Positions 17,701 through 40,300 are shown, counted from the first letter of the stretch. The stretch is 64,000 nt of DNA from a virus (IMGVR_UViG_3300032138_000647:1-64000), one strand, 5' to 3'. The notes: a model not told the origin generated them from the sequence alone. Numbers and translations are program-made.

Positions 17701-20264
17701 GCGACGGCTCGCATACTATACTCATTGGGAATACGGCAGGCAAGGATGCCCAAGTCACCAACCCCGGCAATGAGTTCTTAGCAATTGGACCGCAGGCTGG
17801 AGAGCTTTACGGCGCGACTAGCTATGTTGGTGTGCCCTCCTCCTCCTTAGAGAAAATGCAAGACGGGAGTATTTGCATTGGTTTCAGAGCAGGCTGGAAG
17901 CATTATCTGAGCAAACAGCTTGAGGCCGGTAAGCCAGATTTTATTGCTGGCTATAATACACTGATTGGTTCCAGTGCTGGTTCCACCAGCTATAACATGT
18001 ATTCGACTGTTGCTATAGGTAACAGTGCAGGCGAAGGTCAAGGCGCTACCGCTGCTTATGGGTCGCAGTTTGGTGTGCATATAGGAACTTTCGCTGGGCA
18101 GAATTTAAGCTCTGGGAACTATTGTGTGGATATTGGTGCGTTGGCCGGTTATTCAACGAAAATGAATTCCTACGTCCACACGATGGGCCGCCATGCTGGA
18201 AGCCAGTCATTTCATAACAGACACGTTAACATGTTTGGGACGGATGCTGGTAATGACGCAAGAGAATTAACATGCTCCAACCTGATGGGGTCAGGGGCTG
18301 GCTATTATGCAAGCGGCTGCGACCACATAAACCTAATTGGTACTTTTACCGGATCAGGAGCCAAGGATTGTAGTCATTCAAATATAATAGGCAATGAAGC
18401 TGGCTATCTAGCAACGGGCTGCACCAATATTAATATGCTTGGCTATAGGGCTGGTTATAATACGGAAAGCAACAGCAAGTCAAACCTCATAGGATTCCAA
18501 GCGGGGGAATGGAGTAACGACGTTACTTACTCCGAAGCTATAGGTATGAATGCTGGACGTTTTGCTTCAGGGGTTACAAATAGTGTATTCTTGGGGATAA
18601 GCGCTGGTCTTGCTACAGCAGAGCTTGTGAACAATACCAGTATTGGACATGCTGCCGGAGCATACGCTAACGGAGATGAGTGGACTACCAACATTGGTTT
18701 TTCAGCCGGTTGGGAAGGCTCAGGTTCTACGAATGGTATTTCCATTGGCGATTATGCAGGGCGTACATCGACCAAATCTTTGCAAAGAGTTGCTCTGGGC
18801 TATAAGACTCAGGAATATGCTAGTGGTGTTAGATCATTCATAGCTATAGGTGCCAACGCTGGCTCTGCTGCATCTGGTTGGAAAGAGGTTGCTAGAACCA
18901 ACCCCTATATTCCGGGCCATGCAACAAACAATACAAGTCTGCATCAGTACAGTATTGCTATTGGTCAAAATGCGGCACAGAGGACTGAGAACACCAACCA
19001 ACTTATTGCAATGGGACGTAGGGCTGGAGCGTGGACTCATGATTCAGAGCACGTAATAGCTATGGGCTACCGTGCCGGAATTCAAAGAAAAGAAAACGAT
19101 ACTTCTATCTACATCGGTAGAGATGCAGGTGCTTATTCTGAAGGTGACGGAAGCACTCCCATAGTTGCTGGCGGAAACCATCAGCTTTTCATTGGCCATA
19201 AGGCTGGTAGATTTAACACCGGCGACCAGAATATGTCTATCTTGGCCAACGGTTCGACGGCTGGCGATGCGATTAACGCGGGTTCGCTTGCTTCCCCCAA
19301 AGTACACAATAACCGTTTGAATATTGCAAACCTCATATATGGTCATACCGGTAGCACGGCGGGTCTCAACAGAAAGCTTATGATTGGTCATATTGCTGGT
19401 TGGAATGGGTCGTCATTTGACGCTCCTCACGATCATCTCGCAACACTGCACGTTGTTCCAGCAGACGCAGGCCATACTGAAGTATGTTTGCATCTTGCGG
19501 CTGCCCATAACGGCGCACCAGCTACTGATAGGCTAAATAGCACCGGATACACAGGTCATGGCAGCACATTATCGTTGCCGAGTGCAGCCTCGAATGCTCG
19601 AATGACCACGAGAACGAGTAGGCAAGATACGAATTATACCTCCTCCAGCAATCAGTACACTCAAGATATGAATACCAGTTGGGGGTCAGCGGCCAATGAT
19701 GGGGCTTACGGCTACTTCTTTAATGTCGATGCAGAAGGTAACATGGCGACTATTGGCCAACGAGGATTTCCTATCGTTCCTAGTTTTAAGAGAACGATGA
19801 CTGATGGAGGCAATCCATGGGCAAACTCGAATCAGGGCGATCCCGGATACCTCATGAATAGCTCTAGTAGGGGGGAAGGGCATGCTATAAATAGACAATC
19901 CTGCCTGCGATGGTTTAACAAGAAATATGACCCCTATGACTACGAAGTGGGAACTATGATATTCGCACAGTTTCATCACGGACCCACAGAGGCGATGTGG
20001 CCATACTTGATGATTCTTGGTACAGATAATGGTAGTAGCGGAAACAGAAAGTGGAGATACATTCCAATGCCAAGTTATGATATTGTTGAGGGGAACGGGT
20101 GGGATAACTGCGGCTTGAACCAGCCCTTAAATAGATTCTTCTACGGTCTTCCCATGGGCTACGGCACTTATACTAATCCTACACTTACTTCCAGCAATAA
20201 CGTGGCGAAAGCTACTGTGAGGCGGAGATGGACAGGTGGAACCCCGCATTTAGGATTATTATAA
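14769..20264 (+). CDS. Large fibre protein (1831 aa) with 11-residue stalk repeats and beta-roll repeats
   Basis: Anchor domain, SGALNSQFVSG repeats, duplicated L..L.DV...LQ.NG..W.N modules, long IG..AG repeat block. Confidence 0.8.
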   Translation: MPDKIVVLSDRIKELSETTGTTNMHLQGAATGFSPFSDFYSNSDLVYYAITDGQYYEVGSGQFLLKAGDDELIRFPFKSSGPGATLDTDKVSWPIGVKEIYVTYPAPQSVYTAFGLSPDYNKPKESGFAFWSSANILNYDSNLVWNSGQGRMGIGVTPDHALHIGGNTAYSLVKASGFIASESGLFFPEGNGGTATYSGGRQLEHFVRNKLDDTAVSEGKLGGSTGSSSVIELSGVVDQYILLKQQIKGSVFAGPPSGCGVSCSPAYPNFRYLTLDDLPDLSSLYVTRTGTTSAGNVAFWQEDNVLTDDDYLTWDDASNKLGVGNNDPQYQIHVGGTAGITGDTHIGGDTIASGHMFIGGNLDVAGNTSYIDSNVVTIWDQHLELASMSGAAIVGDTVIDGVGGAGVIIKSTDGDKSILWRSSCDAWQVKGKDGYNLIDVSGIIFNGDCDHLISGAYKAGSGLSLHGGLEFNVGDMFSLGASPPQTIHQGDTILVSGVSGVATTMSKVGNNHILWVDPTELSGILSGGSTASLTEVSGILDNYIDFVSGEFVSGSGALNNKFGDYTLLTDFTSGSGALDNDITSVSGMFVSGSGALNSKIDNLNIDHEIKVSEESGDNLETVSGIHFPAGSIVSAHGGKVAVVDFTAGTAGTLAALSDVTLTSSTNKDHLQFNGAAWVNVTSPSGALNSQFVSGSGALDNYIDFVSGELNSASGSLQNATDTNSSNWISGSGALNSQFVSGSGALDNYIDFVSGELNSASGSLQNAIDLSATSLKVTENDGSPELLSVSGLQFTNASVTSAHAGKIAVIDLTAGAAGDLAGLTDVTLAGLANGHHLQYNGANWENAVTASGALNNQFVSGSGALNSQFVSGSGALNSQFVSGSGALNNQFVSGSGALDNYIDFVSGEFVSSSGALNNKIDNLPGATAITADSGVIRVGDELRLDPRLLSSGVTGSTTNLIALGTHDAGSWNNPHFSLGDGSHTILIGNTAGKDAQVTNPGNEFLAIGPQAGELYGATSYVGVPSSSLEKMQDGSICIGFRAGWKHYLSKQLEAGKPDFIAGYNTLIGSSAGSTSYNMYSTVAIGNSAGEGQGATAAYGSQFGVHIGTFAGQNLSSGNYCVDIGALAGYSTKMNSYVHTMGRHAGSQSFHNRHVNMFGTDAGNDARELTCSNLMGSGAGYYASGCDHINLIGTFTGSGAKDCSHSNIIGNEAGYLATGCTNINMLGYRAGYNTESNSKSNLIGFQAGEWSNDVTYSEAIGMNAGRFASGVTNSVFLGISAGLATAELVNNTSIGHAAGAYANGDEWTTNIGFSAGWEGSGSTNGISIGDYAGRTSTKSLQRVALGYKTQEYASGVRSFIAIGANAGSAASGWKEVARTNPYIPGHATNNTSLHQYSIAIGQNAAQRTENTNQLIAMGRRAGAWTHDSEHVIAMGYRAGIQRKENDTSIYIGRDAGAYSEGDGSTPIVAGGNHQLFIGHKAGRFNTGDQNMSILANGSTAGDAINAGSLASPKVHNNRLNIANLIYGHTGSTAGLNRKLMIGHIAGWNGSSFDAPHDHLATLHVVPADAGHTEVCLHLAAAHNGAPATDRLNSTGYTGHGSTLSLPSAASNARMTTRTSRQDTNYTSSSNQYTQDMNTSWGSAANDGAYGYFFNVDAEGNMATIGQRGFPIVPSFKRTMTDGGNPWANSNQGDPGYLMNSSSRGEGHAINRQSCLRWFNKKYDPYDYEVGTMIFAQFHHGPTEAMWPYLMILGTDNGSSGNRKWRYIPMPSYDIVEGNGWDNCGLNQPLNRFFYGLPMGYGTYTNPTLTSSNNVAKATVRRRWTGGTPHLGLL
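17319..17458 (+). repeat. 33-bp tandem repeat x4 (coding GALN[NS]QFVSGS)
   Basis: GGAGCACT[GA]AACA[AG]CCAGTTCGTCTCCGGGTCT repeated four times; degenerate copies from ~16380 to ~17520. Confidence 0.95.
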
Positions 20265-23949: not shown

Positions 23950-24097
23950 GGCGAGTTTTTGTCGCCAAGGATTCAGTTGTGTGGCTTGCGATAGCAAACC
24001 AAGGATAGCGAGTGTGCCGCACAGCTAGGAAGGATTATTATGATACATTATGCTCCCGTCATGAGGTTCACTGATGAAACAGCATGAGCGGGAGTAT
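23950..24097 (+). promoter_or_regulatory. Structured intercistronic RNA: three hairpins, three AAGGAT motifs, start-codon-sequestering stem
   Basis: Stems 23950-54/23962-66, 23975-85/24016-26 and 24050-63/24083-97; AAGGAT at 23967, 24001 and 24030. Confidence 0.6.
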
Positions 24098-25117
24098 TTT
24101 ATATCGTCTATTAGATCTGGAGTTTGCATTATTAAATATAAGGGTATCACTCTCAAGGTTCACAATCCCACTATTGAACAAGAGATTGAATCCTGCTTGG
24201 TTTATAACAACGCTTATGACTTAGCATATTCTGATGATGTGATGGATGAGGAAGAGGTGCTAGACTGGATGAGGGCCAAGGGGTTGTGGTCTTATGAAGA
24301 TGAGCAGAGAGTAGAAGGGTTAGAAAAAGATATAGAAAATCTAAAAGTTGGTATCTATCAGGCTAGGAATAACGAAAATAGGAGGGAACATATTCGACTG
24401 GGTATTCGTTCTGGTGAGGAGCAGATGGCGCAGATGCTTCTCAAAAAAAACCAGTATCGAGAAAACACCTGCGAAGGAATAGCAGAAAACGCTAAGTGGG
24501 ATTGGATTGTCAAAAACTGCACAACTCTAAATGAAAAGAAGTTTGATTTTGAGTCGGCGTCAGTTGAATATGTACTGTCCTGTTTTAGAGAATCTATGCT
24601 CCCCGAAAGCAAGATACGAGAACTAGCGCAGAATGAACCTTGGAGATGCCTATGGGTAGTTAAAGAAAACTCGGGGACTTCATTGTTTTATAACCACGGG
24701 GAATTGACTTTAAACCAGAAGAATATGATCATCTGGTCAAAAATGTATGACAACATACAAGAGTCTATGGATTGTCCAAATGACGATGTGATTCAAGACC
24801 ATGATATGTTAGACGGGTGGTTTGTTTTGCAGAGAAAGAAACGAGAGAAGGAGCGTGCTGAGTCAGAATTTGAAGGCTCGACCTCCAGCGAGAAGATTAA
24901 GAATTCCAGTGAGATCTTTGTCATGGCGGAGACTGGAGGAGATAAGGATAGGGTTGAGCTTATGAACGACATTGGTGGTCAAATGACTATCAGGCAAAGA
25001 GAGTCTGTCATGAAGCGTAACCAAGGAAAGAGTACTGAGCAGAATGAGTTCCTTGATGAAAAACTCAAGGTTACAAGGCAGAGTAACACAATGTACAAAG
25101 GAAAATTTGGAGGGTAA
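24074..25117 (+). CDS. Tail assembly chaperone-like protein (long paralog)
   Basis: Between tube and TMP genes; N-terminal half aligns by eye with 25495..26382. Confidence 0.55.
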   Translation: MKQHEREYFISSIRSGVCIIKYKGITLKVHNPTIEQEIESCLVYNNAYDLAYSDDVMDEEEVLDWMRAKGLWSYEDEQRVEGLEKDIENLKVGIYQARNNENRREHIRLGIRSGEEQMAQMLLKKNQYRENTCEGIAENAKWDWIVKNCTTLNEKKFDFESASVEYVLSCFRESMLPESKIRELAQNEPWRCLWVVKENSGTSLFYNHGELTLNQKNMIIWSKMYDNIQESMDCPNDDVIQDHDMLDGWFVLQRKKREKERAESEFEGSTSSEKIKNSSEIFVMAETGGDKDRVELMNDIGGQMTIRQRESVMKRNQGKSTEQNEFLDEKLKVTRQSNTMYKGKFGG

Positions 25118-25494: not shown

Positions 25495-26382
25495 ATGCCT
25501 AAAGAAAAACAAAGAGTAGTAGACGTTGTGCTTGACGAGGACAAGCCAGATGAGAAGATTAAGATCGTTGTCAAGAAGCCATCGAATAGAGTGCAGACTG
25601 AAGCGGCACGTATTGGTGCCTTAGTATGGACTAAATGCATTAAAGATGGTGTCATGACAAAGCAGGAGCTTGAAAAGTTCATGACCGACAAGGGGATATG
25701 GGGCAAAAATAAAGAGCAGGAAAAGGAAGACCTCTCAAAAGAGATTAGTGTCCTTGAAAAAAAGCTGTATCTTGGTGGAGAAAGTCCCACAAAAAAGGGT
25801 GCTCGCCGCAAAAAGATTAAGCTTTCAGAAGCCAAAGATCTAGCGATTGAGATGCGACGTAAGCGAGGAGCGCTAAGGGACTTGCTAGCAGAGAAGATTG
25901 TTTTGGAAACCAACACTGCCGAAAGTCTTTCTGAAAACGCTAAGTTTGATTATATTGTTGCTAAATGTACATTCCGAGAAGACGGAACTACACCAGTCTA
26001 TTCTAGTCCAGAAGATTATGGGCAGAGGGCCGAAGATGCCATTGCTTTTAATGCTGCTGGGACACTGGCTGAAATGATGTATTCTATTAATAAGGATTTT
26101 GAGGCCAAGCTTCCCGAGAATAGGTTCCTGTCTCGATTTGGTATGATCAACGAGGAAATGCACCTAGTAAATAAGGACGGCACTACGGTAGACACTAAGG
26201 GCAACCGGATCAATGACGATGGGCACTATCTTGACGCAAAAGGAAATAGGATTGACCTTAAGGGTAATGCTTTGGATCAAGATGGTAACTATGAATACGC
26301 TATCGATTTTGAAGACGATATCGGACTCAGCACAAAAGAAGAATCAGAACCAAAAACTGAAGAAGACAACACGGAAAGTTAG
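25495..26382 (+). CDS. Tail assembly chaperone-like protein (short paralog)
   Basis: Strong SD GAGGAGGG; immediately upstream of TMP; KIVVKKPS motif; C-terminal 7-aa repeats. Confidence 0.6.
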   Translation: MPKEKQRVVDVVLDEDKPDEKIKIVVKKPSNRVQTEAARIGALVWTKCIKDGVMTKQELEKFMTDKGIWGKNKEQEKEDLSKEISVLEKKLYLGGESPTKKGARRKKIKLSEAKDLAIEMRRKRGALRDLLAEKIVLETNTAESLSENAKFDYIVAKCTFREDGTTPVYSSPEDYGQRAEDAIAFNAAGTLAEMMYSINKDFEAKLPENRFLSRFGMINEEMHLVNKDGTTVDTKGNRINDDGHYLDAKGNRIDLKGNALDQDGNYEYAIDFEDDIGLSTKEESEPKTEEDNTES

Positions 26383-26418: not shown

Positions 26419-29400
26419 ATGGCTAAATTTGTACTTACTGCACAACTGCAACTGCAAGCACCGCGTAACGTACAGCAAGTAGTTAGACAAATCCAAAATC
26501 AACTTAATAACGTAAAAGTTAAAGTTGATATAGAGGGTGCGTCTAAGGCACAGACTGATCTGAAAAAGCTGGATAAAGGTGTCAAGCAAGTCACCGATTC
26601 AGCACACAAGATGGGCCAAGCTTTTGCTGTATCCGTTAAGAGGTTTGCTGCATTCTCTATCGCTACTAGAGCTATTGGTTTATTAACCCGTGGTCTAGGT
26701 GGCGCTGTGGCAGAAGCTATAGATTTTGAGCGCCAGCTAACCAAGGTAGCTCAGGTTACCGGCAAAAGCATAGGCCAGCTTAAAGATCTTACCAGAGAGA
26801 TTACTCGACTTTCTACAAGGCTCGGAGTTAGTTCTAAGTCTCTAATTGAGGTTTCAAGAACTCTATCTCAAGCGGGTTTAGATGCTCAAGAAACCAAGGT
26901 TGCTCTTGAGGCACTAGCTAAAACGTCGCTTGCTGCTACGTTTACTGATATCCACCAAACTGCCGAAGGCGCAGTTGCCATATTCAACCAGTTTGGAAAG
27001 GGCGCGGCAGCTTTAGAGAAACAGCTTGGTTCCATCAACGCTGTGGCTGGTCAATTCGCTGTTGAGGCTGGCGATATCATCGCAGCCATCCGGCGTACTG
27101 GTGGTGTGTTCAAGGCCGCTGGTGGTGACCTCAATGAACTCATAGCCCTGTTCACCTCTGTGCGGGCTACCACGCGAGAATCTGCGGAATCTATCGCTAC
27201 CGGTCTGCGAACTATCTTCACTCGTATACAGCGCCCCTCTACAATGAAGTTCCTTAAGGAGCTAGGGGTTGAGCTTAAAAATGCAGAGGGTAAGTTTGTT
27301 GGTCCGTTTGAGGCGGTTAAACGTCTGTCTGAAGCTCTCTCTGATCTGCAACCCGGAGACTTGAGATTTGTTCAGATAGCTGAACAGCTTGGTGGTTTCA
27401 GGCAAATCGGTAAAGTTATTCCATTGCTGCAACAGTTTGCCGTTGCTCAGGACGCTCTTAATGTAGCGATGGAAGGTACGGATTCACTTACTAAAGACGC
27501 CATGACTGCCCAACAGGCCCTTGCTGTAAGAATCACAAAGGTTAAAGAAGAGTTCCTTGCCCTAATCAGGTCTGTCACAGAAAGCAAGACTTTCCAAGTT
27601 ATGGCTAATACAGCCATTTCCCTAGCTTCGGCTTTAATCAAAATAGCCGACGCCCTCAAGCCCTTACTTCCTATGCTCGCCACTATGGCAGCTATGAAAA
27701 TCTTTGGTGGTATTAAGTCCTTCTCAGGCGGCTTGCTCGGTAGAGGAGCAGCAGGCGGGGGGGCTAGAGGGTTTGCTAGTGGAGGGTTAGTTCCCGGTCA
27801 AGGTAGCAGGGATACCGTTCCAGCCATGCTCACTCCGGGTGAGTTTGTTATTAAAAAGTCTAGCGTTAAGAGTATTGGGTCTGATCGTTTAGCAGGAATG
27901 AATAAGTATGCGGCTGGTGGTACAGTCAGAAGAGGGCGAAATGCTTATGGCACCGGCGCTGGGGGAATGTCTACAGATGATATTCTTGCCGCAGCCCGAA
28001 CAGGACCATCCGTTCCTAGTGGTCCCAAACGAGCAAAGTCAAAGATTCGTGGGCAGGGATCTTCTGCGAAACCACTAAACTTCACGGTGCTGCCCGGAAG
28101 GATTGGGGCTTTCTTTTTAGATCCAGCAAACCGCCCACAAGGTGAAGATGTAAGCACTGCTGCTAACGATCAATTTGGGCTTAATAAAACCTCGTTTACC
28201 ATTAAACCCGGCGACAAAGCTTTTGGAAAACTAATTAGGGCTGGTGTCACTACGGGTTCAGGTCTTACCACGCCGGGGGCTTTGCCTTTAGATGTGTTAC
28301 ACAGAGGTAAAGGGGTCAGAGGGAAGCCGGGAGCGGCAGATAAAAAGTCGGGTGTTGAGGGAGTCCTTCACGCTATGTTAAAAGGAAACCGTAGTAGCTT
28401 CTCTGGATTTTTTCCAGCTACGGGGAACTTGAAAAACAATAAAAAAATAAACGATAAGGTCATGGAGGCAACCAGTTCAGCCTTAGCCGATGCGGTTGGT
28501 GCTGTTGGAAGTCAGGTGGCTCCATTCTTAAAGGCCGGTAGTATTTCTGCGGGATTTTCAGATGCCGCAAAAAAAGCTATCAGAAATGACGATAATGCGG
28601 TAAAGAGTTCTGCCGGATTTGTTTTTGAAGGTCTTATCCATTCTCTAACTGGAGCCTCTCCCGGTGGTGGAACTAGCGGTTTTGATTTTCCATTCAAAAG
28701 CATTAAGTCTGCTCGACCTAAACTAGAAGGTTTGTTTGGTAGCGGCGCTGGCCGTATGATCAAAGCTGACGCAAAAAGAGATTGGAACAAGAGGGGCGAG
28801 ATTAAGAACAAGCTGCTGAATGATATTAAAGCTGGCGACTGGATGGGTGTTGCATTAGGAAAAGTTGGCTTGGATACTCCTCAAGTTGGTGCAGGTTTGG
28901 GATCAAGGAACAAGGGGCAACACGGTGTTCTTCCTCCTGTGACAAAAGATACAACTTTTATTAAAAGGGCCAGTGGAGGCTCCGTTACAGACACTGTTCC
29001 CTCTCTCCTCACACCCGGCGAGTTCGTTGTTAATAAGAAATCCGCCCAAGGTATTGGGTATGGCAACCTCTACCGCATGAACCAGCGCGGCGCGGAAGGC
29101 TTTGCTTCTGGTGGTGTAGTCGGTGGCCCACGCAAATTCCAGATGGGTGGAATGATGGGTGGTATGGGTATGAGTGGCGGAAATGTGGGCTTCGCCCTTG
29201 CTGCTGGTTCCGCCATGGCCGGAGAAGGTTTGATTAGTCTCAGGAAAGCCACCGATGAAGAAGCAGAAGGAATCAGAAGAATAAGCGGCATGTTTACACA
29301 GTTTGGTGCTCAGTTTGGAACAATGAGCATGTTGATAGATAACTGGAAAGGCAAGAAAGAGGAAGAGAGTAAAGCCTTAGAGGATAGCGCTAAGGCATAT

Positions 29401-32400
29401 CAGGAAGCTACAGGCTTGAAGGAAGAGGAGGCTCAGGCTCAGCAAGAGTGGATTAAGCTGCACACGGATGAAGGTAAGTCGATGGAGGAGATCGGCAAAA
29501 TCCTTGAGGACATGAACAAGAAAAAAGCTGAGTCAAAGGCAACCTCTGGGATGTCAGATAATCCAGAACTAATCAAATCTCTAGAGGATTTAGATCGGGG
29601 ATTTGACAAGGAGACCGGCGGTGCCGGAGAATTGGGACAGATGGCCCAAGCTGAGATGTCGGGTGTTGCAGACAGGGCTAGGACTTTGAGAAATGAGCGT
29701 AATGAGCAGTCGTTTATTGCTAAGGGTAAAAAGAAAGAGTTAAAGGAGAACAAGAAAAATCAGCGTGGCGTTAAGGTAGAACACGACAAGGTTACAGAAG
29801 AGATGGATCTCCGCCGAACAGCACAGGCGGAATTTCAGGGAAGGGAACGGCGAGGGCAAGACAAGCGAGAAGAGATTCTTGCAACTAATGAGCAGGATAA
29901 GCAAGACGTTGAAACAATTGGGAGAAGGCAGAGTGGATTAAAGGGTGCTGCAACAAGGATGCAGAATCGCAAGGATGAGATTCATCGTGCTCCAAAGTTT
30001 GGCGAGGAGAGTGTTGATCTCCCGAGTGGCGTAGTTGGTATGGGTGGCAGGGCAACCTCTGCTGACAGCGAGTTGGGTCAGGTGTGGGGGCGGGGTCAAG
30101 AGTTATCCGAAACCGTAGGTCCAGCAGCACAGGAGCGAGTCGCAGCCGCCGACAAACAGGTGGGGCAAGATCAGGCAGCGCTTGCTACCGCCGAAAGTAG
30201 GAACAGGAATCTTCAAGTAGGGGCTGCGAATTGGAAAGCGGCTGATGATGTGACTGCGGCTGAACAGGAGTTAAGTGACGCAAGAGGCCAGCGATTCCGA
30301 CAGCGGGATGATCCCGGAGCCGCTGGTCGCACTCAAGCAGAAGCAGTCGCTGCTGGCGATTTAACCATGACGCCGGGCTTGGAGGCAGAGAATGCCAACA
30401 GGGTTAAGCAGGCTCAAGCGAAATTGGATCAAGCAAAACAGCAGGCTCTTGGTGGTGGTGGCACCATGGATACTGGCGGTGGTGGCGGGGGAGGGGCAGC
30501 CCAGCTACAACAGTTGCAAGTTCAAGCTCAGCAAGTAAATATACAAGCCCAAAACGTTAGCACTTCAGAGGGGGGTGGTGGCGCAGAGCCTCTGTTTAAG
30601 ACTACGGAAATGGCTGCTGCCGAAGCGGAACTTGCTAGAGCACAAGACCCCACAATGGACATGGGAAGTGTCGGCTCTCGGTATGCTGCTGGTGCTGACA
30701 CAACGGCGGAGGAAGCTAGTCTTGCAGGCGCACAGCAACGTCAACAGGAGGCCGCTTTGCTTAAGCCGGGAGACATGACGGCTGATCTCCCAGAAGGCCA
30801 TCCCGCTAACGCAGATCTTGCCCAGAGCACGGCAGAGCAGGTGGCAGCGCAACAACAACTTAATGATCTTCTGGATGAACACAACGATTTGGCCAACGAA
30901 GCCAATGCTCTTTCAGAGGAATACGGCCAACTCCAAGAGAGCCTAGCTGCAAATGGCGACAAGCAAGCGGAGAATCAAAGATACTTGAATGAAGCCATAT
31001 TGCAAGAACAGGAATCTGCTGCTGAACTGTTGGCGATTGACCAAGCTTTGGCAGAGAATGCTGAAGCAAGAAGAACAAACGGTGAAGAGCTTGCAATGCT
31101 TGGGCGGGCAGATGGAGAACTGCACAGACAAAATAACGAGCTACTGGCCGAGGCTGCTAGACTGGAAGCAGAACGCAAGGAAGCTGCTGAAGCTGCCAGC
31201 GCGGCTAACAAAGAATTGGGGCGGCTGGATGAAACAATAGCGGCTGGGCCGGAAGCTCTTGCGGTTAAGATGGGTGCCTCTAAGCTAACAAGTGCTGTGG
31301 GCGGTAAAGACTCAGAAGCTGGTAAGAATATTGGCGTGGGAATGGAAGCAATTACAATGAAGGCAAAGGATGCGGCTGAGGCACTGAAAGGTCATAAGAA
31401 ATTCCTTGTTGCCTACTCCAAAGAGCTTGCTCGTGGAGTTGATCCCGCTAAGGCTATGGCTCGCGCTATGGCACAGGCCGCTCCTGCTACCAGTAAGATG
31501 CGACGAGGACTTGCCCAAGCTGCTGCTGGACTGCGAAATTTTGGATCAAAAGCTAAGAAAATGGGGGGTGCGATTAAAGAGAAGTTTGCAGCAGCCAACA
31601 AAAAGATGGAAGGCTTTTCTAAAGCTCTGGGCGCGGGCATTTCAGCCGCCACATCTATGGTTTCATTTGTTCAGGGGCTACAACAAGAGCAATTTGACAA
31701 AGCTCTTGAAAGCGGTGATGCTGATACGGCTATGGGGATGACGGAAAGTATGGGCACGGTGGATAAGATTGGCGGTGCTGTGCAAGGTGCCGCTATGGGT
31801 GCTGCTATGGGTGCTATGTTTGGACCTCTAGGTATGGCTATCGGTGCTTTGATTGGTGCTATTGGCGGTCTGGTCATGGCCTTCTTGGGCGCTGATAAGA
31901 AACAAATTGAAAGAGAGAAGAAGATACATGCGGTGCGGGTCAAGTCTGCTCAAGAGAGTACCGGCAAGGCTATGGAAAACATTTCCGAGAAGGGTTTGCA
32001 GGAAGGCAACCTGAAGGATATGAATGCTGGATTTAAGCAGCAAGAAGCTTTGATGAACAAGAGGAACACGGTAAATAACCAGCTACTCCTGACAGAAGAA
32101 GAGCGGGAGAAGATGGAGAAGCGGCTCGCGGGAGAACAATTAAAAGCTGCTACTCTGATCGGCAAGTCTGTAAAGACCGAGGCAGAACTTGAAGCTGCCA
32201 TGAGTTCATTGGCAAACGATACCATTGGTAGCTCAGAAGCTGAAATGGATGCTGCTAGGTCGGCGTTCTTTGTAGCTCAGGCTAACAGGGAATTAGCAAA
32301 GTCAAACGCAGACCTGATCAAGATTACTTCCGCATTTCAGCGTGCTACCAGCGCTGTCGATAACTTTGTCAACGGCTTGGAGACTGGAACCAATAGGTTC

Positions 32401-34323
32401 GACTCTATTGTTAGCGATCTAGAAATGTCTCAACAGAATATCGCCCTTGGTCAGGGTGGGGTTGCCTCTGTGGACGCTGCCAGAGATGCCACAATGAAGG
32501 GATTAGAAAGGGCTGGTGTTCGTGGTGACTCTGATGTTGGACAAGCTGTAGATAGGTCGTTTAAAACTATGGAGAATACAGCTTCATTCATGTCCAACCT
32601 GCCGGGCAAACTAGAAAATCTAAACTTTGGAGAAGATAAGTCGGCAGCAGGAGCAAGGGATACAATACGATCACAGCTTATGACTGCCGACATGGACCCG
32701 AAGCTCAAGGGCGCTATTGAAAAAGCCATGGCGGGAATGAGCGATCAGCAGCTAGAAGCCATAGCTAAGGGCGAGGGAGACATATCTCAACTGCTTAAGG
32801 GTGTTGGCACACAAATGAACAAGCTGGGACAAGCTGGCTTGGAAGCGGCCAAAGCTCTACAAAAACATGAAGCCACTATCATTAAGCTGACTCAGAAGAG
32901 AATTCAAGCTGAGGCGAATTATATAGTAGCTCAGAAGAAGTCTATTGACATAATGATGGAAGCCAATGAAATCATTGCTAAAGTCGGTGGGCCAGCAGTA
33001 ACTCCAGAGATGAAAACTCAGGCTACTCTAGCCAAGGCTAATCTCGGCAGTGATAAACTTGGGTTAACACAACTTAAGACGGGGAGTGCAGATGAACTAA
33101 GGCAGCGGACAAATGAGATTATGCAAAAGTTTGGTCAGCAAGAAATAGCTGGCAGAACTCCAGATACGTTTAGTGGATCGCAGGGATTAGACGACGATAA
33201 ACGAGCAGATCTACAAAAGGCAATGCAGGATCAGATTTCCCTACACAAAGAGCTAATCAAGGGTAAGATGGAAGAACTGAAGATCCTTGATAAGAAGAAT
33301 GCCTTAGAAAAATCATCACTGGAAGATGCCCTCAAGGGAGACATGCAGTCATTCCTTAAGAAGCAGGCTGCTGTAGGAGCTACGGCTGCTGCTGCGTCAG
33401 GCGACCAGAGAATGATGAGAATGTTTGGAGTAGATGCTATTGCTGAAGCCTTTAGCAATGTAGAAAAGATGAAGCAAGAGGGAGTTCAGGACGTACACGG
33501 GGTTAATATACAGGACGTTTCTCGAAGCTTAGCCTCCACCGGCTTGGCCATGAGAGGTCTTGGCAGCGATCCTCGGATGACTGATATGCTTGCCGGGCAG
33601 ATGCCAGAACAGGAAGCTTTGAAGAATGAGATCAAGGACTTAGCTGTAGGTCTTTCAGAAACCGGTCAGGGTGCGGCGCAGCTTGCAGAGATGCAAGTTC
33701 AGACAGCAAATATTACAATTGCCACTGCCAACTTCAAGTTTAATCAGCAACTCAATCAGGCGGCTGGATTGTTTGGTGGTGGAGCCGGTGTTGACGCGAG
33801 GCGATGGGGCGGAATGATACATGCAAGCAAAGGTATGTTCATTCCTAGGGGAACCGACACTGTACCCGCCATGTTGACTCCCGGCGAGTTTGTAGTTAGA
33901 AAAGAAAGCGTTAACAGAGGAAATAATCTACAGCTTCTGAGAGGCATGAATAGCGGCTCTGTAGTTTCCGATGGGTCTATAGGGTTCTCTCGCGGTGGAC
34001 AGGTTGGATACTACCAGCGTGGTGGCACAGTAGATGGTGGCGCGGGCATAGGATTAGATCCTACCGTAGCAAATAACTTATCTGCTAGTTTAATTGCCTT
34101 CAATAAAGACTTGGCGGCAAATATTTCTTCACTAGAAAATATGAAATTCCAGATACGTCTGGATACAACTAATATCAATGTAAACCTAAACGGTACTAGC
34201 TTCTTGGCACAACTTAAGGATAGCTTGAAAGAAGAGCTACTGGCCGAGGTTGGATCACGCATCAAGGAATTGAAATTCAATGACGCTGGAGAACCACAAT
34301 CTAGTTCTAGTGTATTAGGATAG
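26419..34323 (+). CDS. Tail tape measure protein (2634 aa)
   Basis: TP901-type N-terminal TMP core (FERQLTKVAQVTG, LSQAG, IATGLRTIFTRI), long Ala/Gln/Glu coiled coils, hydrophobic GAAMGAMFGPLG segment. Confidence 0.92.
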   Translation: MAKFVLTAQLQLQAPRNVQQVVRQIQNQLNNVKVKVDIEGASKAQTDLKKLDKGVKQVTDSAHKMGQAFAVSVKRFAAFSIATRAIGLLTRGLGGAVAEAIDFERQLTKVAQVTGKSIGQLKDLTREITRLSTRLGVSSKSLIEVSRTLSQAGLDAQETKVALEALAKTSLAATFTDIHQTAEGAVAIFNQFGKGAAALEKQLGSINAVAGQFAVEAGDIIAAIRRTGGVFKAAGGDLNELIALFTSVRATTRESAESIATGLRTIFTRIQRPSTMKFLKELGVELKNAEGKFVGPFEAVKRLSEALSDLQPGDLRFVQIAEQLGGFRQIGKVIPLLQQFAVAQDALNVAMEGTDSLTKDAMTAQQALAVRITKVKEEFLALIRSVTESKTFQVMANTAISLASALIKIADALKPLLPMLATMAAMKIFGGIKSFSGGLLGRGAAGGGARGFASGGLVPGQGSRDTVPAMLTPGEFVIKKSSVKSIGSDRLAGMNKYAAGGTVRRGRNAYGTGAGGMSTDDILAAARTGPSVPSGPKRAKSKIRGQGSSAKPLNFTVLPGRIGAFFLDPANRPQGEDVSTAANDQFGLNKTSFTIKPGDKAFGKLIRAGVTTGSGLTTPGALPLDVLHRGKGVRGKPGAADKKSGVEGVLHAMLKGNRSSFSGFFPATGNLKNNKKINDKVMEATSSALADAVGAVGSQVAPFLKAGSISAGFSDAAKKAIRNDDNAVKSSAGFVFEGLIHSLTGASPGGGTSGFDFPFKSIKSARPKLEGLFGSGAGRMIKADAKRDWNKRGEIKNKLLNDIKAGDWMGVALGKVGLDTPQVGAGLGSRNKGQHGVLPPVTKDTTFIKRASGGSVTDTVPSLLTPGEFVVNKKSAQGIGYGNLYRMNQRGAEGFASGGVVGGPRKFQMGGMMGGMGMSGGNVGFALAAGSAMAGEGLISLRKATDEEAEGIRRISGMFTQFGAQFGTMSMLIDNWKGKKEEESKALEDSAKAYQEATGLKEEEAQAQQEWIKLHTDEGKSMEEIGKILEDMNKKKAESKATSGMSDNPELIKSLEDLDRGFDKETGGAGELGQMAQAEMSGVADRARTLRNERNEQSFIAKGKKKELKENKKNQRGVKVEHDKVTEEMDLRRTAQAEFQGRERRGQDKREEILATNEQDKQDVETIGRRQSGLKGAATRMQNRKDEIHRAPKFGEESVDLPSGVVGMGGRATSADSELGQVWGRGQELSETVGPAAQERVAAADKQVGQDQAALATAESRNRNLQVGAANWKAADDVTAAEQELSDARGQRFRQRDDPGAAGRTQAEAVAAGDLTMTPGLEAENANRVKQAQAKLDQAKQQALGGGGTMDTGGGGGGGAAQLQQLQVQAQQVNIQAQNVSTSEGGGGAEPLFKTTEMAAAEAELARAQDPTMDMGSVGSRYAAGADTTAEEASLAGAQQRQQEAALLKPGDMTADLPEGHPANADLAQSTAEQVAAQQQLNDLLDEHNDLANEANALSEEYGQLQESLAANGDKQAENQRYLNEAILQEQESAAELLAIDQALAENAEARRTNGEELAMLGRADGELHRQNNELLAEAARLEAERKEAAEAASAANKELGRLDETIAAGPEALAVKMGASKLTSAVGGKDSEAGKNIGVGMEAITMKAKDAAEALKGHKKFLVAYSKELARGVDPAKAMARAMAQAAPATSKMRRGLAQAAAGLRNFGSKAKKMGGAIKEKFAAANKKMEGFSKALGAGISAATSMVSFVQGLQQEQFDKALESGDADTAMGMTESMGTVDKIGGAVQGAAMGAAMGAMFGPLGMAIGALIGAIGGLVMAFLGADKKQIEREKKIHAVRVKSAQESTGKAMENISEKGLQEGNLKDMNAGFKQQEALMNKRNTVNNQLLLTEEEREKMEKRLAGEQLKAATLIGKSVKTEAELEAAMSSLANDTIGSSEAEMDAARSAFFVAQANRELAKSNADLIKITSAFQRATSAVDNFVNGLETGTNRFDSIVSDLEMSQQNIALGQGGVASVDAARDATMKGLERAGVRGDSDVGQAVDRSFKTMENTASFMSNLPGKLENLNFGEDKSAAGARDTIRSQLMTADMDPKLKGAIEKAMAGMSDQQLEAIAKGEGDISQLLKGVGTQMNKLGQAGLEAAKALQKHEATIIKLTQKRIQAEANYIVAQKKSIDIMMEANEIIAKVGGPAVTPEMKTQATLAKANLGSDKLGLTQLKTGSADELRQRTNEIMQKFGQQEIAGRTPDTFSGSQGLDDDKRADLQKAMQDQISLHKELIKGKMEELKILDKKNALEKSSLEDALKGDMQSFLKKQAAVGATAAAASGDQRMMRMFGVDAIAEAFSNVEKMKQEGVQDVHGVNIQDVSRSLASTGLAMRGLGSDPRMTDMLAGQMPEQEALKNEIKDLAVGLSETGQGAAQLAEMQVQTANITIATANFKFNQQLNQAAGLFGGGAGVDARRWGGMIHASKGMFIPRGTDTVPAMLTPGEFVVRKESVNRGNNLQLLRGMNSGSVVSDGSIGFSRGGQVGYYQRGGTVDGGAGIGLDPTVANNLSASLIAFNKDLAANISSLENMKFQIRLDTTNINVNLNGTSFLAQLKDSLKEELLAEVGSRIKELKFNDAGEPQSSSSVLG

Positions 34324-34335
34324 AGGAGTAGGGCG

Positions 34336-37300
34336 ATGTCTCTAGAATGTCTATGTGTTAGACATGGAAGCGGAAAGGCGCAAGCTTCTGGCGGCGTACT
34401 TAGGGCTAAGCTTAGCTGTGCTCCAGCCTGCGTTATCGCCAAGCCTACCGGTAGAGGGTCTATTAAGGCTCTCATGCGGCGAGAAAGAGGCGGTAGCGCC
34501 AAGCTCACGGCTACCGGCCACATAACTGGTGGCGAAGTTGTGGATGTCGCATTTGAGAACTCAACCGTTAGAGCCTTAAAGCCCCGCCTAGCAGTAGACT
34601 TTTATCTTGGAGGGGCATGGGAGGATAGGAGTGTAGGGGAGGGAGATGACGACAGTTGGATTCCGCCTCAATTTCATGGTCATGGACACACCCATTATGG
34701 TAAGAAGGTAAACCCTGTTGGGGTATTTAGCATAACTCCCGGACTAACTCAGGTTCATAATCCAAGCAAAAGATTTAAAGCTACGGGTAGTCTACGAGCT
34801 AAATACGCAGACAAGTTTGCTGGTAGCTTTAATGACTTTGGCTGCTTCCATAAGCTGTATCCCATAAAAGATATAGACGTATTATATGATGGCGGGTACT
34901 TTGTTAACGAGTCTAACAACAGCGGCAATCTCTATGACAGCGTGGACGAGGGTGTATTTACAGGCTCTTATCATACCCAGTCTGGTATTAGTTATCGCAT
35001 ATCTGACGATCTCAATACTTTTATTCAACCTTCTGCTGTCTATACTACCGGCAGATTCAGATATAAATGTGAAGTTACTAATCCAGCCGTAACCGCCAAG
35101 GATAGTAGATTTTATTTTAGAGCATCTGCTCCTAGGGAAAACTATTCCTCGAAGGTGCCACCAGTATATAAAGTCCAAAATATCAGGCTGGAAGATCCCT
35201 CTGGAAATCTCATTATTAAATATGAGAATATTAGTCTTAGGGGTGACGCAGATTATGATAGCTATCAGTATGTCAACTTTGGAACCTACGGAAGTAAGCC
35301 AGAAACAAACAATCTATTGCTCCATACTTGGCATGCCGACTATCCATTTATGGAAGAAGGTGCGGGGTACACCCTCAGCTTTGAGGTTGATGTCGAGTGC
35401 CTAGACGACCCGTTTGATCGAGGATTTGATCCGGGTTATGAAGACACCTGCGCTCTGTTGGACCCACAAGTTCCACACTCTGGAAATGATTACCTAGCCT
35501 TGGATGGCGCTCCGCTAGCCACTCAGACTCAGCGGCTATCATTCCTAAATCCCACTAATACGATTAGAATATCTGCCATTGAGATATGTAATAGTGGAGG
35601 GTTTGATACTCTGAGAGAGCAGTACATGCCTATTCACTTCGGCGTGCAGGAAACCGGCAGAAGAATGGAGAGGTGTATACTTCCATCATTAATTCCTACG
35701 TATGAGTTTGATGCTGGAGTATACCCCACGTCTAGCAGTGTGTGGTCAGACTCTATTACCGGACTTACGAACCAAAGCGGAGTGGGTGCTGGACATCTAA
35801 CATCACTCATTAGAAACCCATGTAAGAGTAGTGCAATTACTCTTAGTTCTGCTAATCAAGTCGCTGACTCAGGTAAGCTGCTCCTTGAGTTTAGACATCA
35901 GGCCCCCAAGACTGTTAGCGATTTTGCAGGAGGGGCCTTTGATGGCAGCTATCTTCTGAGAGAGTTCAGTGTATCCCATAGGTCAACATATACACCAGAT
36001 GATCATCCGTTTATTGTAGACTCCGTATATCTTAAGGTGTTAGCCAAAAAAGAAGTCGGAAGCAGGGACTATGCTTTAGATATTGTTGGGTGGAGTGACG
36101 ACAGGCTGCTCAATGTTACTTCGGCTGTGGGAGGATTTTTGCAAAATCCGTCTGGAAGCGAAAATAACTTCGCACCTATAAGTAGTGGCTTCAACCCCAC
36201 TAATGAGCTAGCCTTGGGCGGAGAGTCTTTATCTGATAAGAGCCAGTATTATGACGCTAGCGGAACCTGCAATGCTGGCGGCGATCACTACATCCTTTCT
36301 AATACCCCCATGGTCACAGGGACGAGTTTTGGCTGGTACGAAGTACCCCTTACTATATATGATGACTGTGTAACGCTTGGGAAATCTCCAGATTTTTCAC
36401 AAAGCTCCTTCTTTGAAAGGTTGTTCTTAGATATATTCCCGCTGCCTAGCGGGGCTTCTATAGCTGCGGCTGAATTGTGTGTTAAGTACAAGCCAGCTAA
36501 TGGTTTAAACCTAAATACTATTGGCTATGAGAGAATAAGCCGTATTGGAAAGACCAGAGAAGAAGGGAAGATCACTCCAATTGGCAGGCAGACCGCTGAT
36601 GATATCATAAATGCTGGTTCTGGCTTGTCATCTCTATCTGCTATATCAAATATACCACATGGCTTTACGACCCCAGACGACATTAAGTCTAACTACTCCA
36701 GAAGGTGGAGAGGCTTGGAAGGTATTGTTCAAGGCCCCTTCGATCCCGACATGTTTGGCTTTGGCTTTAAAAATCCAACACTAGACTTCCCGCTGCTTTC
36801 TGGTTTCTATGATTTTGATTATGATAACAACCTTATCATCAAGTCTAGACCGCTGGGTAGCGGGTTTGGTTCTGCCACGGGAACCATGACTACTAGCTAT
36901 AGCGAGCACCACTTTAAGAACCTTGGTTGGAGATTTAATAGTAGTGGACTGTTTAATCAGTCTTTGCCAGATCTGACTGGCCCGTATAGAACAACTGACT
37001 GGACTTCACTATCTAAGACTGGATTCAATTTTGAAAGTCATGAGCTACATGGGCAGATTGCTGACGCGTTTAATAATGTAGTTAGGCTATCAGGAGTTAA
37101 TTCTTATATTAACTTTGGTCATATAGATACAGTTAGCGGATTTTCTATCTACACACGATTTACACCGGATGCCAATGTTAGCGGTGTAGGATTTAACTTG
37201 TTTGAGTCTGGAGCACTTGTGTCCAAATGGGACGCCGGAAAGGATCTGGAGTTTGCTCTGGGTTATGAAAACGGATACCTATGTGGTTACGCAACAGACA

Positions 37301-40300
37301 AGGATGACAACCTTGTAAAGGTAAAGGACACAATTACCTATGACAAATATCAATACCCTCTTTCTGCGCTCTTAACATACAATGACAACAACTCTAGCGG
37401 ACTTAAGCTATACACAGATAATGAATTGCATTCTGGTGTGTTCAATACCCTAAGAGCTTCTTCAAGCGAGTTCTATAAAAAGACCGGCGACAGCAATATA
37501 GTTCTAGGATATTCACCCGGCTCAGGTGTCGGGATGAACATGTTTGTAAGCGAATTCGGTATTGGTACATATCACGAGTCAGGCTGTCATATTGTAGAAG
37601 CAGATCCCGATCTGACATTTAAAGAGATACTGGCAGAAAACTTCCTAGCTGGAAATAGAGTTAAATTCTGGGCCTCGGGTGAGCCTAGCAGTAACGATAG
37701 ATATAAGCTATGGAGTTATGTGGATGAAGATACCCTGAAGTGGGACTTGGGAGCATTTAAGGTTTGTGAGTTCAGTCCAGACTTTGACTTCTTTACTGAC
37801 AGGGAAGGTAGGGACTTAATCTCTATCAATATTAAGCATGACGGCTCTGGCTATTTGCAGAGAGTTGACATGCCAATGCCTGAGTCTATTAGTTATAGTG
37901 GTCTTGCCTATCATACCCAAATTGAAAACGACTTCTTAAGATTCAATCTATCAGATGCGTCAGATAACTTCTATACTGCCAACCACCCCAGAATTACTAA
38001 GAGTCTTCCTCAAGGCTATGCATTTGCAGACAGAGCCTTTGTCGTAGAGACAGTTCTTGAACATGAAACCCTGAATAGCATTGCGTGGCCAGACGGCAAG
38101 CTTGGTCCTAAGCTAATTGTTAGTTTGTACACAAAGAATCAGGAGCCAAGCTCTTTCTCCACAACCAATTATGGGCTAATCAATAGAGACATCCATTACC
38201 TCAAGCCGTCTGGTTGCTGGAGAAGAATTGATAGCACGTTTAATTACAACAGTTTCTTTGATGAGTCTGAAGAGTGGGCATTGTTCCCACCAACTAGGCG
38301 TCTGACGGAATTCAATAAGAAGTATTATTCGCAGGACGTGAATGATATGTTCTTGCAGTATGACTTGGTTTATCCTTCTGGTCCAGCATTTGAGTCCAGA
38401 GTAAATGTTCACAGTGCCCACGTAAGACTAGAAGACGCATTTATTGTTCCCACGGAAGTGTCGGGTAATGTAAATCTTACCACTAGTGGTGAGCAGAGAC
38501 CTAGGGAAACTCTTCCTCTGCACTCTATGACTATATGTCATCTGGACAACTTGTCTTCTGGACACAGATTCTGTTCGGGAATCTTGGAAGGTATTTATCC
38601 ATCTGGCCTTACCCTGTACACTCAGGGGCCAACTAGAATAGACTCGCTGTTTGATGGTTCTGGAATGACGCTCTTTACGTCTGGAGCTATTCACCTTCTA
38701 GGTAGCGGTTTCTTCAATCTACTTGCGTCAGGCGGAAGCCTTGGTTCTGCTGGATCATCTGGAACAGGCGGCGTCGGCGGAGAAGACTTCCTAGGAATGA
38801 ACCTTTATGTTTCTGGGCAATATGCACTATCTGCCAGAATGCCGCTGTTTGCATTTAATAACCAGATATCTTTCCGACACGGCTTTGGACCCTTCTATGT
38901 TTATGGTACTGAAAATGGAAACCATTCTGGAGTGAATGGACATTTCTATCCGCTATACACAAACAGGTCCGCAGCGGAATCTGATAGCAGCGATGGTTTG
39001 GCTCACGCGCATACGTTTACGGAATATCCGGGAATAACTTTCTATATGCCCCACAGTGACCAGAACCATGGCATTGATAAGGCCCCATCTTATCTAATAA
39101 ATTATGATGTCTTCCCGAAATATCCAGCACTTAATCTGAACACCCACGCCTCTACCCACACTGGACATTTCAGTCATATTCCGATCTATCTGCATCAGTA
39201 TGCAGAGTCTGTTAGAAGCGATGAAACTAGCAGTCTTAACATGTACACTAAAGCTTTGGGGGCCTTGGCGAGTCGGTATACTGACGGATTCTTCAACTTG
39301 TATACAGGTTCGCCAGCCACGCCATCTGCCAAGATGCCGCTGGTTATCTGGAACGATATAAGTCTTATTCCTAGCCTTGCAAGCGGCAGCTTCAATCTCC
39401 ATACCGCTACATTTGGAGCCGGTCTTGGGGCGGATTATATGACTTGGAATGAGTATAATTATGGACACGATATAACTATTGATGATAATAGCTTTGCCAC
39501 CCTAGAAGCAGATGATGAGATTCGAGGGGTGGACATGGTCTGCTACGGAGCTTGTGACGCTGACGGAAACGAAAAGTGCAATGATCCTCCAGTATTCACC
39601 CACGACGTTGTGTGGCGTCCCGAGTCGTGTGTAACCGGAGGTATCTTCAGACCCTTTGCTACCTATACTAACTTAGATACCAGAGGCTTTAATACCGATG
39701 TTGGGTATAGTGGTCACTTCTACGGAATGAGGAAGTATACAGACCTGAAACCCAACGCTCCATACGCTCTAACTTTGCGTGGATCTACTGGCACAACACG
39801 GAGCATTCCTCTACCAAGAGATTGGGAAGAGTGGGAATATGGATCAGTAGATGATGTAAAGTTCTCTGGCATTAAATTTATTGGTGACTATCCGTATCTT
39901 AGCGGACAAAAACCGATAACACCGCCTTCTGGCAGGATGGAAGGAGATAGGTACGGAAAGGCTATTTCTGTCACTGACGAACTGATGGTAGTTGGCGCAC
40001 CCCTGCATGAGTTTGATGAGCAAGGAGGAAATACATATTTCGACTCGGGAAACAGTCGGCTAGCTTGGGTTGGTGGCAGTGGGCTTACGGAAGCTGGTGC
40101 TGTTTATCTATACCGAAGAGGCCCTCAGCCCCAGTCTCCAAACATGCACCCAAGTGGACACAAAGCTTATTGGAATCTAGAGTCCAAGATTGTTTTGCCG
40201 TCTGCCTATAGAGGCGACTGGTTCCATTGGCTGCCGGGAACTATGTCGTTTGGCGGATTGCCCAAGCTTCCGGTTAGACAATGGGAGATAGGACAAGAGG

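Follow-up and report, generated by a model that had tools for sequence, protein, structure and literature searches.

The stretch of DNA analysed here (IMGVR_UViG_3300032138_000647:1-64000, hereafter the window) covers the first 64 kb of an IMG/VR viral contig of 121.8 kb, whose completeness is estimated at 73%. It codes for a giant tail tape measure protein (TMP) in which a conserved domain with an invariant E ... D ... (D/E)xK motif is bracketed by two copies of a glycine-rich junction unit. We read this domain as a PD-(D/E)xK-like enzyme that sits in a cargo slot of the TMP and would be delivered to the host as a nuclease. Judged from the sequences and the structure models, the probability of this reading is about 0.5. 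The features that bear on it are listed below, with the evidence for each in brackets.

26419..34323, + strand: TMP open reading frame (ORF) of 2634 amino acids (aa) (single open frame; PF10145; six PHROG TMP families)
27772..27927, + strand: junction unit 1, aa 452-503, FASGG - DTVPAMLTPGEFV - YAAGG (translation; unit profile)
28054..28866, + strand: conserved alpha/beta domain, aa about 546-816, PD-(D/E)xK-like (confident model; 49 clusters; 18 viral loci)
28627..28629, + strand: invariant E737 on a predicted helix, within GFVFEGLI, which starts at nt 28615 (alignments A1 and A3; model helix 274-293)
28684..28686, + strand: invariant D756 within GFDFP (alignments A1 and A3; beta-bridge to the (D/E)xK strand)
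28768..28776, + strand: D784-A-K786, the (D/E)xK motif, within KADAKR (alignments A1 and A3; model strand 331-337)
28966..29121, + strand: junction unit 2, aa 850-901, RASGG - DTVPSLLTPGEFV - FASGG (translation; unit profile)
33799..34032, + strand: junction unit 3, aa 2461-2538, DTVPAMLTPGEFV (translation; unit alignment)

The tape measure protein and its conserved domain

The ORF at 26419-34323 belongs to a large uncultured marine tailed phage and is, by its sequence, a TMP, because it contains a PF10145 (PhageMin_Tail) domain and matches six PHROG families of TMPs. The Pfam match had an E value of 7e-27 and 95-102 bits against a cut-off of 33.2. The PHROG families were 4211, 1533, 167, 28, 1272 and 24, every one annotated as 'tail length tape measure protein'. 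An earlier prediction, made from the window alone (the original prediction), had called the protein a TMP, and these matches bear it out. The sequence also displayed the hallmarks of a TMP, namely a long, predicted helical, low-complexity ruler, a membrane-type segment and a tip-proximal unit 3 near the C-terminus. No relative was found in the phage collection by megablast with a 12-kb query. The metagenomic relatives of the TMP came mostly from TARA Oceans samples.

The domain was searched for with HMMER, using aa 505-850 against 1.84 billion representative proteins. This search gave 49 matching clusters (best E 7e-20), whose proteins were nearly all 1000-3200 aa long and had the domain at their residues about 600-830. 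The same arrangement was present in 18 IMG/VR viral contigs of 27-137 kb, with ORFs of 1945-3591 aa: a unit at aa ~470, the domain, a second unit at ~780-990 and a third ~150 aa from the end. In most relatives the distance from the domain to unit 2 was 92-125 aa. The nuclease-like domain was found in every relative and was never replaced.

Two alignments were made, one of 50 sequences (A1) and one of 23 core sequences (A3), with an overall identity of 30-45%. The invariant columns of the 50-sequence alignment were G733, E737, A746, D756 and K786 (TMP numbering). Position 784 was always D or E in both alignments, and the residue between it and K786 was A, V, L, I or G, with EVK in several relatives. 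The order E ... D ... (D/E)xK was kept in all 50 + 23 homologs, so the helix-E / D / (D/E)xK motif pointed out in the original prediction is not a coincidence of a single sequence. With E737 on a modelled helix, the domain has the conserved acidic and lysine motif of the PD-(D/E)xK active site. In these nucleases, a strand typically bears a Lys two residues past an acidic one.

The insert, the ~345 aa that separate unit 1 from unit 2, has a basic composition with little E or Q (G 15%, K 10%, R 5%, E 1.7%, Q 1.7%). Its composition agrees with the earlier description of a K/R/G-rich segment that is not coiled-coil, as opposed to the A/E/Q-rich ruler (A 16%, E 9%, Q 7.5%). The remaining features of the TMP are as follows; the last of them is its sole strongly hydrophobic stretch.

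26797..27354, + strand: PhageMin_Tail (PF10145) domain, aa 127-312 (95-102 bits, above the cut-off)
29267..33738, + strand: A/E/Q-rich ruler region of ~1500 aa, aa about 950-2440 (composition; PHROG TMP matches)
31798..31896, + strand: glycine-zipper hydrophobic segment, aa 1794-1826 (Kyte-Doolittle scan, maximum 2.15)

Fold of the domain

The structure of the domain was modelled with AlphaFold2 and an alignment of homologs, which gave aa about 551-816 at a pLDDT of 82-95. The model begins with five N-terminal strands and three long helices, the last of which bears E737. These are followed by a short strand or bridge at D756-F757, a helical insertion, the strand D784-A-K786, a helix and a final strand. 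In a model of the 126-aa core only, which reached a pLDDT of 77 at best, F757 was paired with A783; D756 would therefore lie beside D784 and K786.

The core model was also compared with known structures by VIA. Of 48,161 chains, no more than 71 had Z>=2, with 3.8 as the highest value. PD-(D/E)xK enzymes made up about 20 of the 50 best matches of these 71, with Z of 3.6-2.2, all below 4. The best of them was the VRR_NUC entry 4qbo (Z 3.6, root-mean-square deviation (rmsd) 4.9, 65 aligned). The nucleases included three VRR_NUC entries, 3ijm, four cap-snatching endonucleases, LHK-Exo and a phage exonuclease, as well as PspGI, Bse634I, SgrAI, NgoMIV, NhoI, McrC, a CdiA-CT DNase, Can1, DUF820 and AF1548. 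Since the PD-(D/E)xK superfamily accounts for a small fraction of the PDB, such an enrichment is unlikely to have arisen by chance.

The domain was compared with established PD-(D/E)xK nucleases (VRR-NUC, Hjc/Mrr-type and cap-snatching). It shares with them the E on a modelled helix, the hDh pattern and the (D/E)-hydrophobic-K on a modelled strand, all of them invariant. It differs from them in having no match to a curated-family profile, in five additional strands at the N-terminus plus three long helices, and in being embedded in a TMP. Two further differences concern the core itself: in the models, the beta1 strand that canonically lies between the helix with E and the strand with D appears to be absent or very short, and ~26 residues, partly helical, separate the D from the (D/E)xK.

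These two departures from the canonical core speak against a nuclease, and a number of other results do so as well. The other four of the five core-only models had a pLDDT of 55-62, and the core-only model used is of moderate reliability. Foldseek returned no match with E below 1, either for both models in the PDB or for the core in BFVD. With the 462-aa model, VIA found only helix-hairpin (long-helix) matches. About 15 of the 50 best core matches in VIA were histone folds at an rmsd of 6-7 A, including the top one at Z 3.8, and no structural match was individually significant, the best nuclease being the one at Z 3.6. Neither HMMER against the representative proteins nor a profile search among shorter proteins found a stand-alone homolog of known function. 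The insert had no Pfam match with any of the queries (the entire TMP, its 462-aa region, its 291-aa domain and the 23 core sequences), which yielded PF10145 and nothing else. Sequence searches of the PDB with the single sequence and with the core profile had no match to the domain, and the best score in the ESM Atlas, 0.78, was uninformative. The delivery step has a difficulty of its own. Three to six folded 30-kDa domains side by side would be too bulky for the lumen of the tail tube, and storage there would require them to be unfolded or staggered.

The nuclease assignment of the original prediction was therefore retained in part: the motif is conserved, the E helix and the (D/E)xK strand were modelled and the core matches were enriched in nucleases, but no single fold match was significant, and the confident AlphaFold2 model yet lacked a Foldseek counterpart in the PDB or BFVD. 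From the models we lean towards a PD-(D/E)xK fold for the domain. If this predicted fold is real, the domain is a new family of that superfamily.

The weakness of the fold matches and their mixture with histone folds would also suit a non-catalytic structural or assembly module, which could set the register of the chain, plug the lumen or dock to the tail terminator, with E, D and K serving folding or oligomer contacts. Such a part would be expected at a fixed position in every family member, as was observed, and no known enzyme family was matched. We consider this explanation rather unlikely. It does not account well for four charged residues that are spaced as in PD-(D/E)xK sites and are kept at 30-45% identity with D/E exchange. 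The adjoining modules in relatives are, moreover, enzymes, exemplified by an ADP-ribosyltransferase (ART), and a lysozyme occupies the same slot in other TMP-like proteins.

Junction units, extra modules and neighbouring genes

Translation of 27772-29157 and of the whole ORF placed units 1 and 2 exactly where the original prediction had them. Its count of two copies was correct as far as it went, but a third copy at aa 2461-2538 had been missed, which makes the total three. Each unit consists of [FYR]xxGG, a core DTVP(A/S)(M/L)LTPGEFV, a short helical stretch closing on MN, and a second xxGG. Three cores and eight GG motifs were counted. Over a length of about 55 aa, 21 positions are identical in all three units, far more than chance would give. 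The DNA of the units showed a mean column identity of 68%, with synonymous sites differing throughout and no long identical run. The duplication is therefore old and maintained by selection at the protein level, and the units would be poor substrates for homologous recombination inside this genome. Their proposed role as recombination boundaries within the genome is unsupported at this level of DNA identity. Recent intragenic recombination between the units is ruled out by the same divergence.

A profile of the three units was used in hmmsearch against the PDB and had one meaningful target, residues 735-784 of the lambda TMP gpH (8iyk_H; E 0.0046, 48 columns). The unit is therefore a homolog of a widespread, functionally unexplained TMP segment. 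In maturation, gpH is cut within a glycine-rich stretch close to the C-terminus, giving gpH* and gpHC (about residues 690-853), at a site and by a catalyst still to be established; residues about 690-817 have no resolved density in the tail tip (PMC12617516). By sequence, the units are homologous to a gpH segment inside the C-terminal fragment that is lost at tail maturation. The part of gpH that matches the GG - PxxhxxGEFV - YAxGG unit is located just past the cleaved glycine-rich region (PMC12617516). Unit 3 of the window TMP lies at a comparable distance from the C-terminus, about 150 aa (154), which is the usual place in TMPs; the other TMP PHROGs have a single copy of the unit, near their C-termini. 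The two proteins differ in that gpH has one unit and no enzyme, whereas the window TMP has three units, the two internal ones bracketing an enzyme-like domain. The idea that the GG/DTVP units are processing boundaries is thus only an analogy to gpH. A self-cleaving unit of the Thr/Lys or S24-like type was considered and dropped, as the Thr is absent from gpH. The PHROG searches left the insert itself unmatched, and only the unit matched TMP C-termini. A tblastn search against phages found only the unit and a weak N-terminal similarity, both in phages of Synechococcus (Bellamy and S-SM2).

About 15 of about 55 relatives had additional segments of 130-550 aa before or after the nuclease-like domain, each bounded by [FYL]AxGG. 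All-against-all BLAST of these segments revealed at least seven kinds in varying order. Module A, for example, occurs in eight proteins: in L014 and L018 it precedes the domain, in L009 and others it follows. A 'swappable cassette' had been proposed for the stretch between the DTVP units. Its contents do vary, since the slot takes extra modules in about a quarter of the relatives, but they vary by addition: the nuclease-like domain is common to all and is not swapped.

One extra module is an ART. When the segment L013:9111-9761 (L013 is IMGVR_UViG_3300044675_006066) was scanned alone, it matched PF03496 (ADPrib_exo_Tox) with E 5e-6 and 26.4 bits against a cut-off of 23.4. It has the R, STS and ExE motifs, and the same module is found in P0034. 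In the L013 TMP, the nuclease-like domain is directly followed by the ART, a HAD-like module (FDFDDTL) and a further module, each within [FL]AxGG. The HAD-like module gave a match to DUF2608 at E 0.0017, and a possible GNAT module had E 0.058, both under the Pfam cut-off. In P0026, a 3209-aa TMP on a 98-kb ENA contig, an extra module before the domain has a Walker A/P-loop sequence and was called from the visible GPAGSGKT motif alone. The segment L019:8109-8684, between unit 1 and the domain, reads AFEKIV..(17 aa)..DFLDLPFGEIKSD, a compact and canonical-looking E..D..EIK-like motif. To judge from this motif, the segment may be another paralog of the nuclease-like kind; when aligned to the core profile with hhalign, it reached a probability of 14%, which is not significant. 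Two further kinds of modules have no assigned function.

The full-length Pfam scan of L013:6624-15740 missed the ART, whereas the isolated 217-aa segment was above the gathering cut-off. For TMPs of 2000-3500 aa, it is therefore advisable to scan one module at a time. Automatic annotation probably under-counts the enzyme modules of giant TMPs.

The profile search among shorter proteins gave 235 matches. Of the 117 new ones that were examined, 114 had the unit and three the nuclease core. Three shorter TMP-like proteins (P0122, P0143 and P0144) contain one DTVPAMLTPGEFV unit, a glycine-rich linker and a GH24 lysozyme (PF00959). As the unit precedes a lysozyme or LysM elsewhere, the unit with its GG linkers marks an enzyme-carrying place in the TMPs of several lineages. 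P0092 and P0111 were also among the shorter unit carriers with a GH24 lysozyme or LysM after the unit. Muralytic domains are embedded in the TMPs of T5 (pb2) and of mycobacteriophages. These TMPs and P0122, P0143 and P0144 resemble the window TMP in carrying an enzyme inside the protein, directly after the unit in the latter three. The target differs: it is peptidoglycan in the muralytic TMPs, and putatively nucleic acid in the window family, with protein ADP-ribosylation in relatives.

The window domain could likewise be a cell-wall or membrane-active hydrolase whose acidic residues merely mimic a nuclease motif. The lysozyme or LysM after the unit in related TMP-like proteins would fit this, and the TMP enzymes described so far are muralytic (PMC12617516). 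We regard a hydrolase as very improbable, given that no sequence or fold search assigned the domain to a lysozyme, transglycosylase or peptidase, and that its invariant Lys, two residues past the acidic residue on the modelled strand, is nuclease-typical.

The unit was also found in gene 12 of phage Bellamy (L021:5056-7455), an 800-aa 'hypothetical protein' encoded right after the baseplate hub genes of this T4-like cyanophage. Gene 12 has the unit and membrane segments and is without the nuclease core. On account of its position, membrane segments and unit, it is likely a gp29-type tape measure that is presently unannotated.

The neighbours of the window TMP had no match in PHROG and Pfam except for FG-GAP repeats in the downstream ORF. 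This ORF (34336-46824, 4162 aa) lies directly downstream, has FG-GAP_2 (PF14312, E 7.5e-25) near its C-terminus and probably encodes a giant protein of the distal tail or a fibre. The TMP of P0026 is flanked alike: a gene for 296 aa precedes it, and one for a giant FG-GAP protein follows. Just upstream of the window TMP, the ORFs at 24074-25117 and 25495-26382 are paralogs (28% identity over 138 aa, E 9e-11). A 123-aa ORF sits between them, and none of the three matches PHROG or Pfam; this may be the region for tail tube and chaperone. Farther upstream, two ORFs of ~1830 aa each (4952-10432 and 14769-20264) are similar to each other in short stretches only. The Ig-like segments of the former match virion structural, tail spike and sheath PHROGs.

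Proposed role of the nuclease-like cargo

The TMPs of this family follow a fixed plan of PF10145, unit 1, a domain of ~270 aa, unit 2, a ruler of ~1500 aa with a glycine zipper, unit 3 and a short tail. The stretch between units 1 and 2 would be the cargo compartment of the TMP, with the nuclease-like enzyme always aboard. Some relatives would load further enzymes, each within [FYL]AxGG linkers, so that the ART and the other enzymes would be optional additions to a constant nuclease cargo. The TMP must exit the tail ahead of the DNA and takes part in forming the trans-envelope channel (PMC12617516), and for this reason the cargo would arrive first in the host envelope or cytoplasm. A basic, metal-dependent nuclease would there cut host or competitor DNA. 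On the analogy of lambda gpH, cleavage may take place at the Gly-rich junctions and release the enzymes from the ruler.

Inside the virion, the leading end of the genome enters the tail tube and adjoins the TMP (PMC12617516; also the title of bioRxiv 2024.12.10.627806). A PD-(D/E)xK-type domain could act on the phage's own DNA, binding or trimming the leading end and piloting it through the TMP channel. The motif and the fold evidence would be the same as for a host-directed nuclease, and the basic composition of the insert would suit a contact with DNA. The companion modules, on the other hand, resemble host-directed effectors such as the ART, and the domain, at 550 aa from the N-terminus, would not be at the end expected to face the DNA. 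We find a handler of the phage DNA end improbable.

A nuclease delivered to the host would have parallels in other virion-borne effectors. ART fusions on MuF head proteins have been described, e.g., the MuF-VIP2 ART in Microbacterium phages (PMC7302621). The window family shares with the MuF-toxin fusions and with the polymorphic toxins of phage virions the combination of a constant virion carrier and variable enzyme modules, including an ADPrib_exo_Tox-type ART. In contrast, the carrier here is a tail TMP, the modules are internal and additive instead of C-terminal and exchanged, and the nuclease-like module is constant. The contractile injection system effector Sle1 is described as a TMP-like modular scaffold with diverse domains, ejected from a tail-like tube (PMC13277306). 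Sle1-type effectors, unlike the window TMP, are cargo of contractile injection systems of Actinobacteria and have C-terminal domains. In the literature searched, no nuclease-type or ART module inside a phage TMP was described, which does not prove its absence. Enzyme-bearing TMPs and virion ART fusions are already known, and the nuclease-type and ART modules in a phage TMP are probably new. We propose only tentatively that giant marine-phage TMPs are a multi-enzyme injection platform. The [FYL]AxGG/DTVP junctions would then be maturation cleavage sites freeing a new PD-(D/E)xK nuclease and, in some phages, an ART, a P-loop enzyme and a HAD-type phosphatase into the host at the very start of infection, ahead of all phage gene expression.

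The known roles of TMPs are to measure the tail and build the trans-envelope channel, and some TMPs bear a cell-wall hydrolase as well. Enzymes delivered with the virion have earlier examples in T4 Alt and the MuF-toxin fusions. If the present reading is true, a constant nuclease-type domain in the TMP would bring the tail lumen of long-tailed phages into the range of such 'pilot' enzymes, the more so since relatives have the ART and other enzymes at the same junctions. The conserved E/D/(D/E)xK residues make the nuclease hypothesis open to direct testing by mutagenesis. Another consequence of the reading would be a concrete role for the GG/PGEFV motif, which is widespread near the C-termini of TMPs, including the cleavage region of lambda gpH (PMC12617516).

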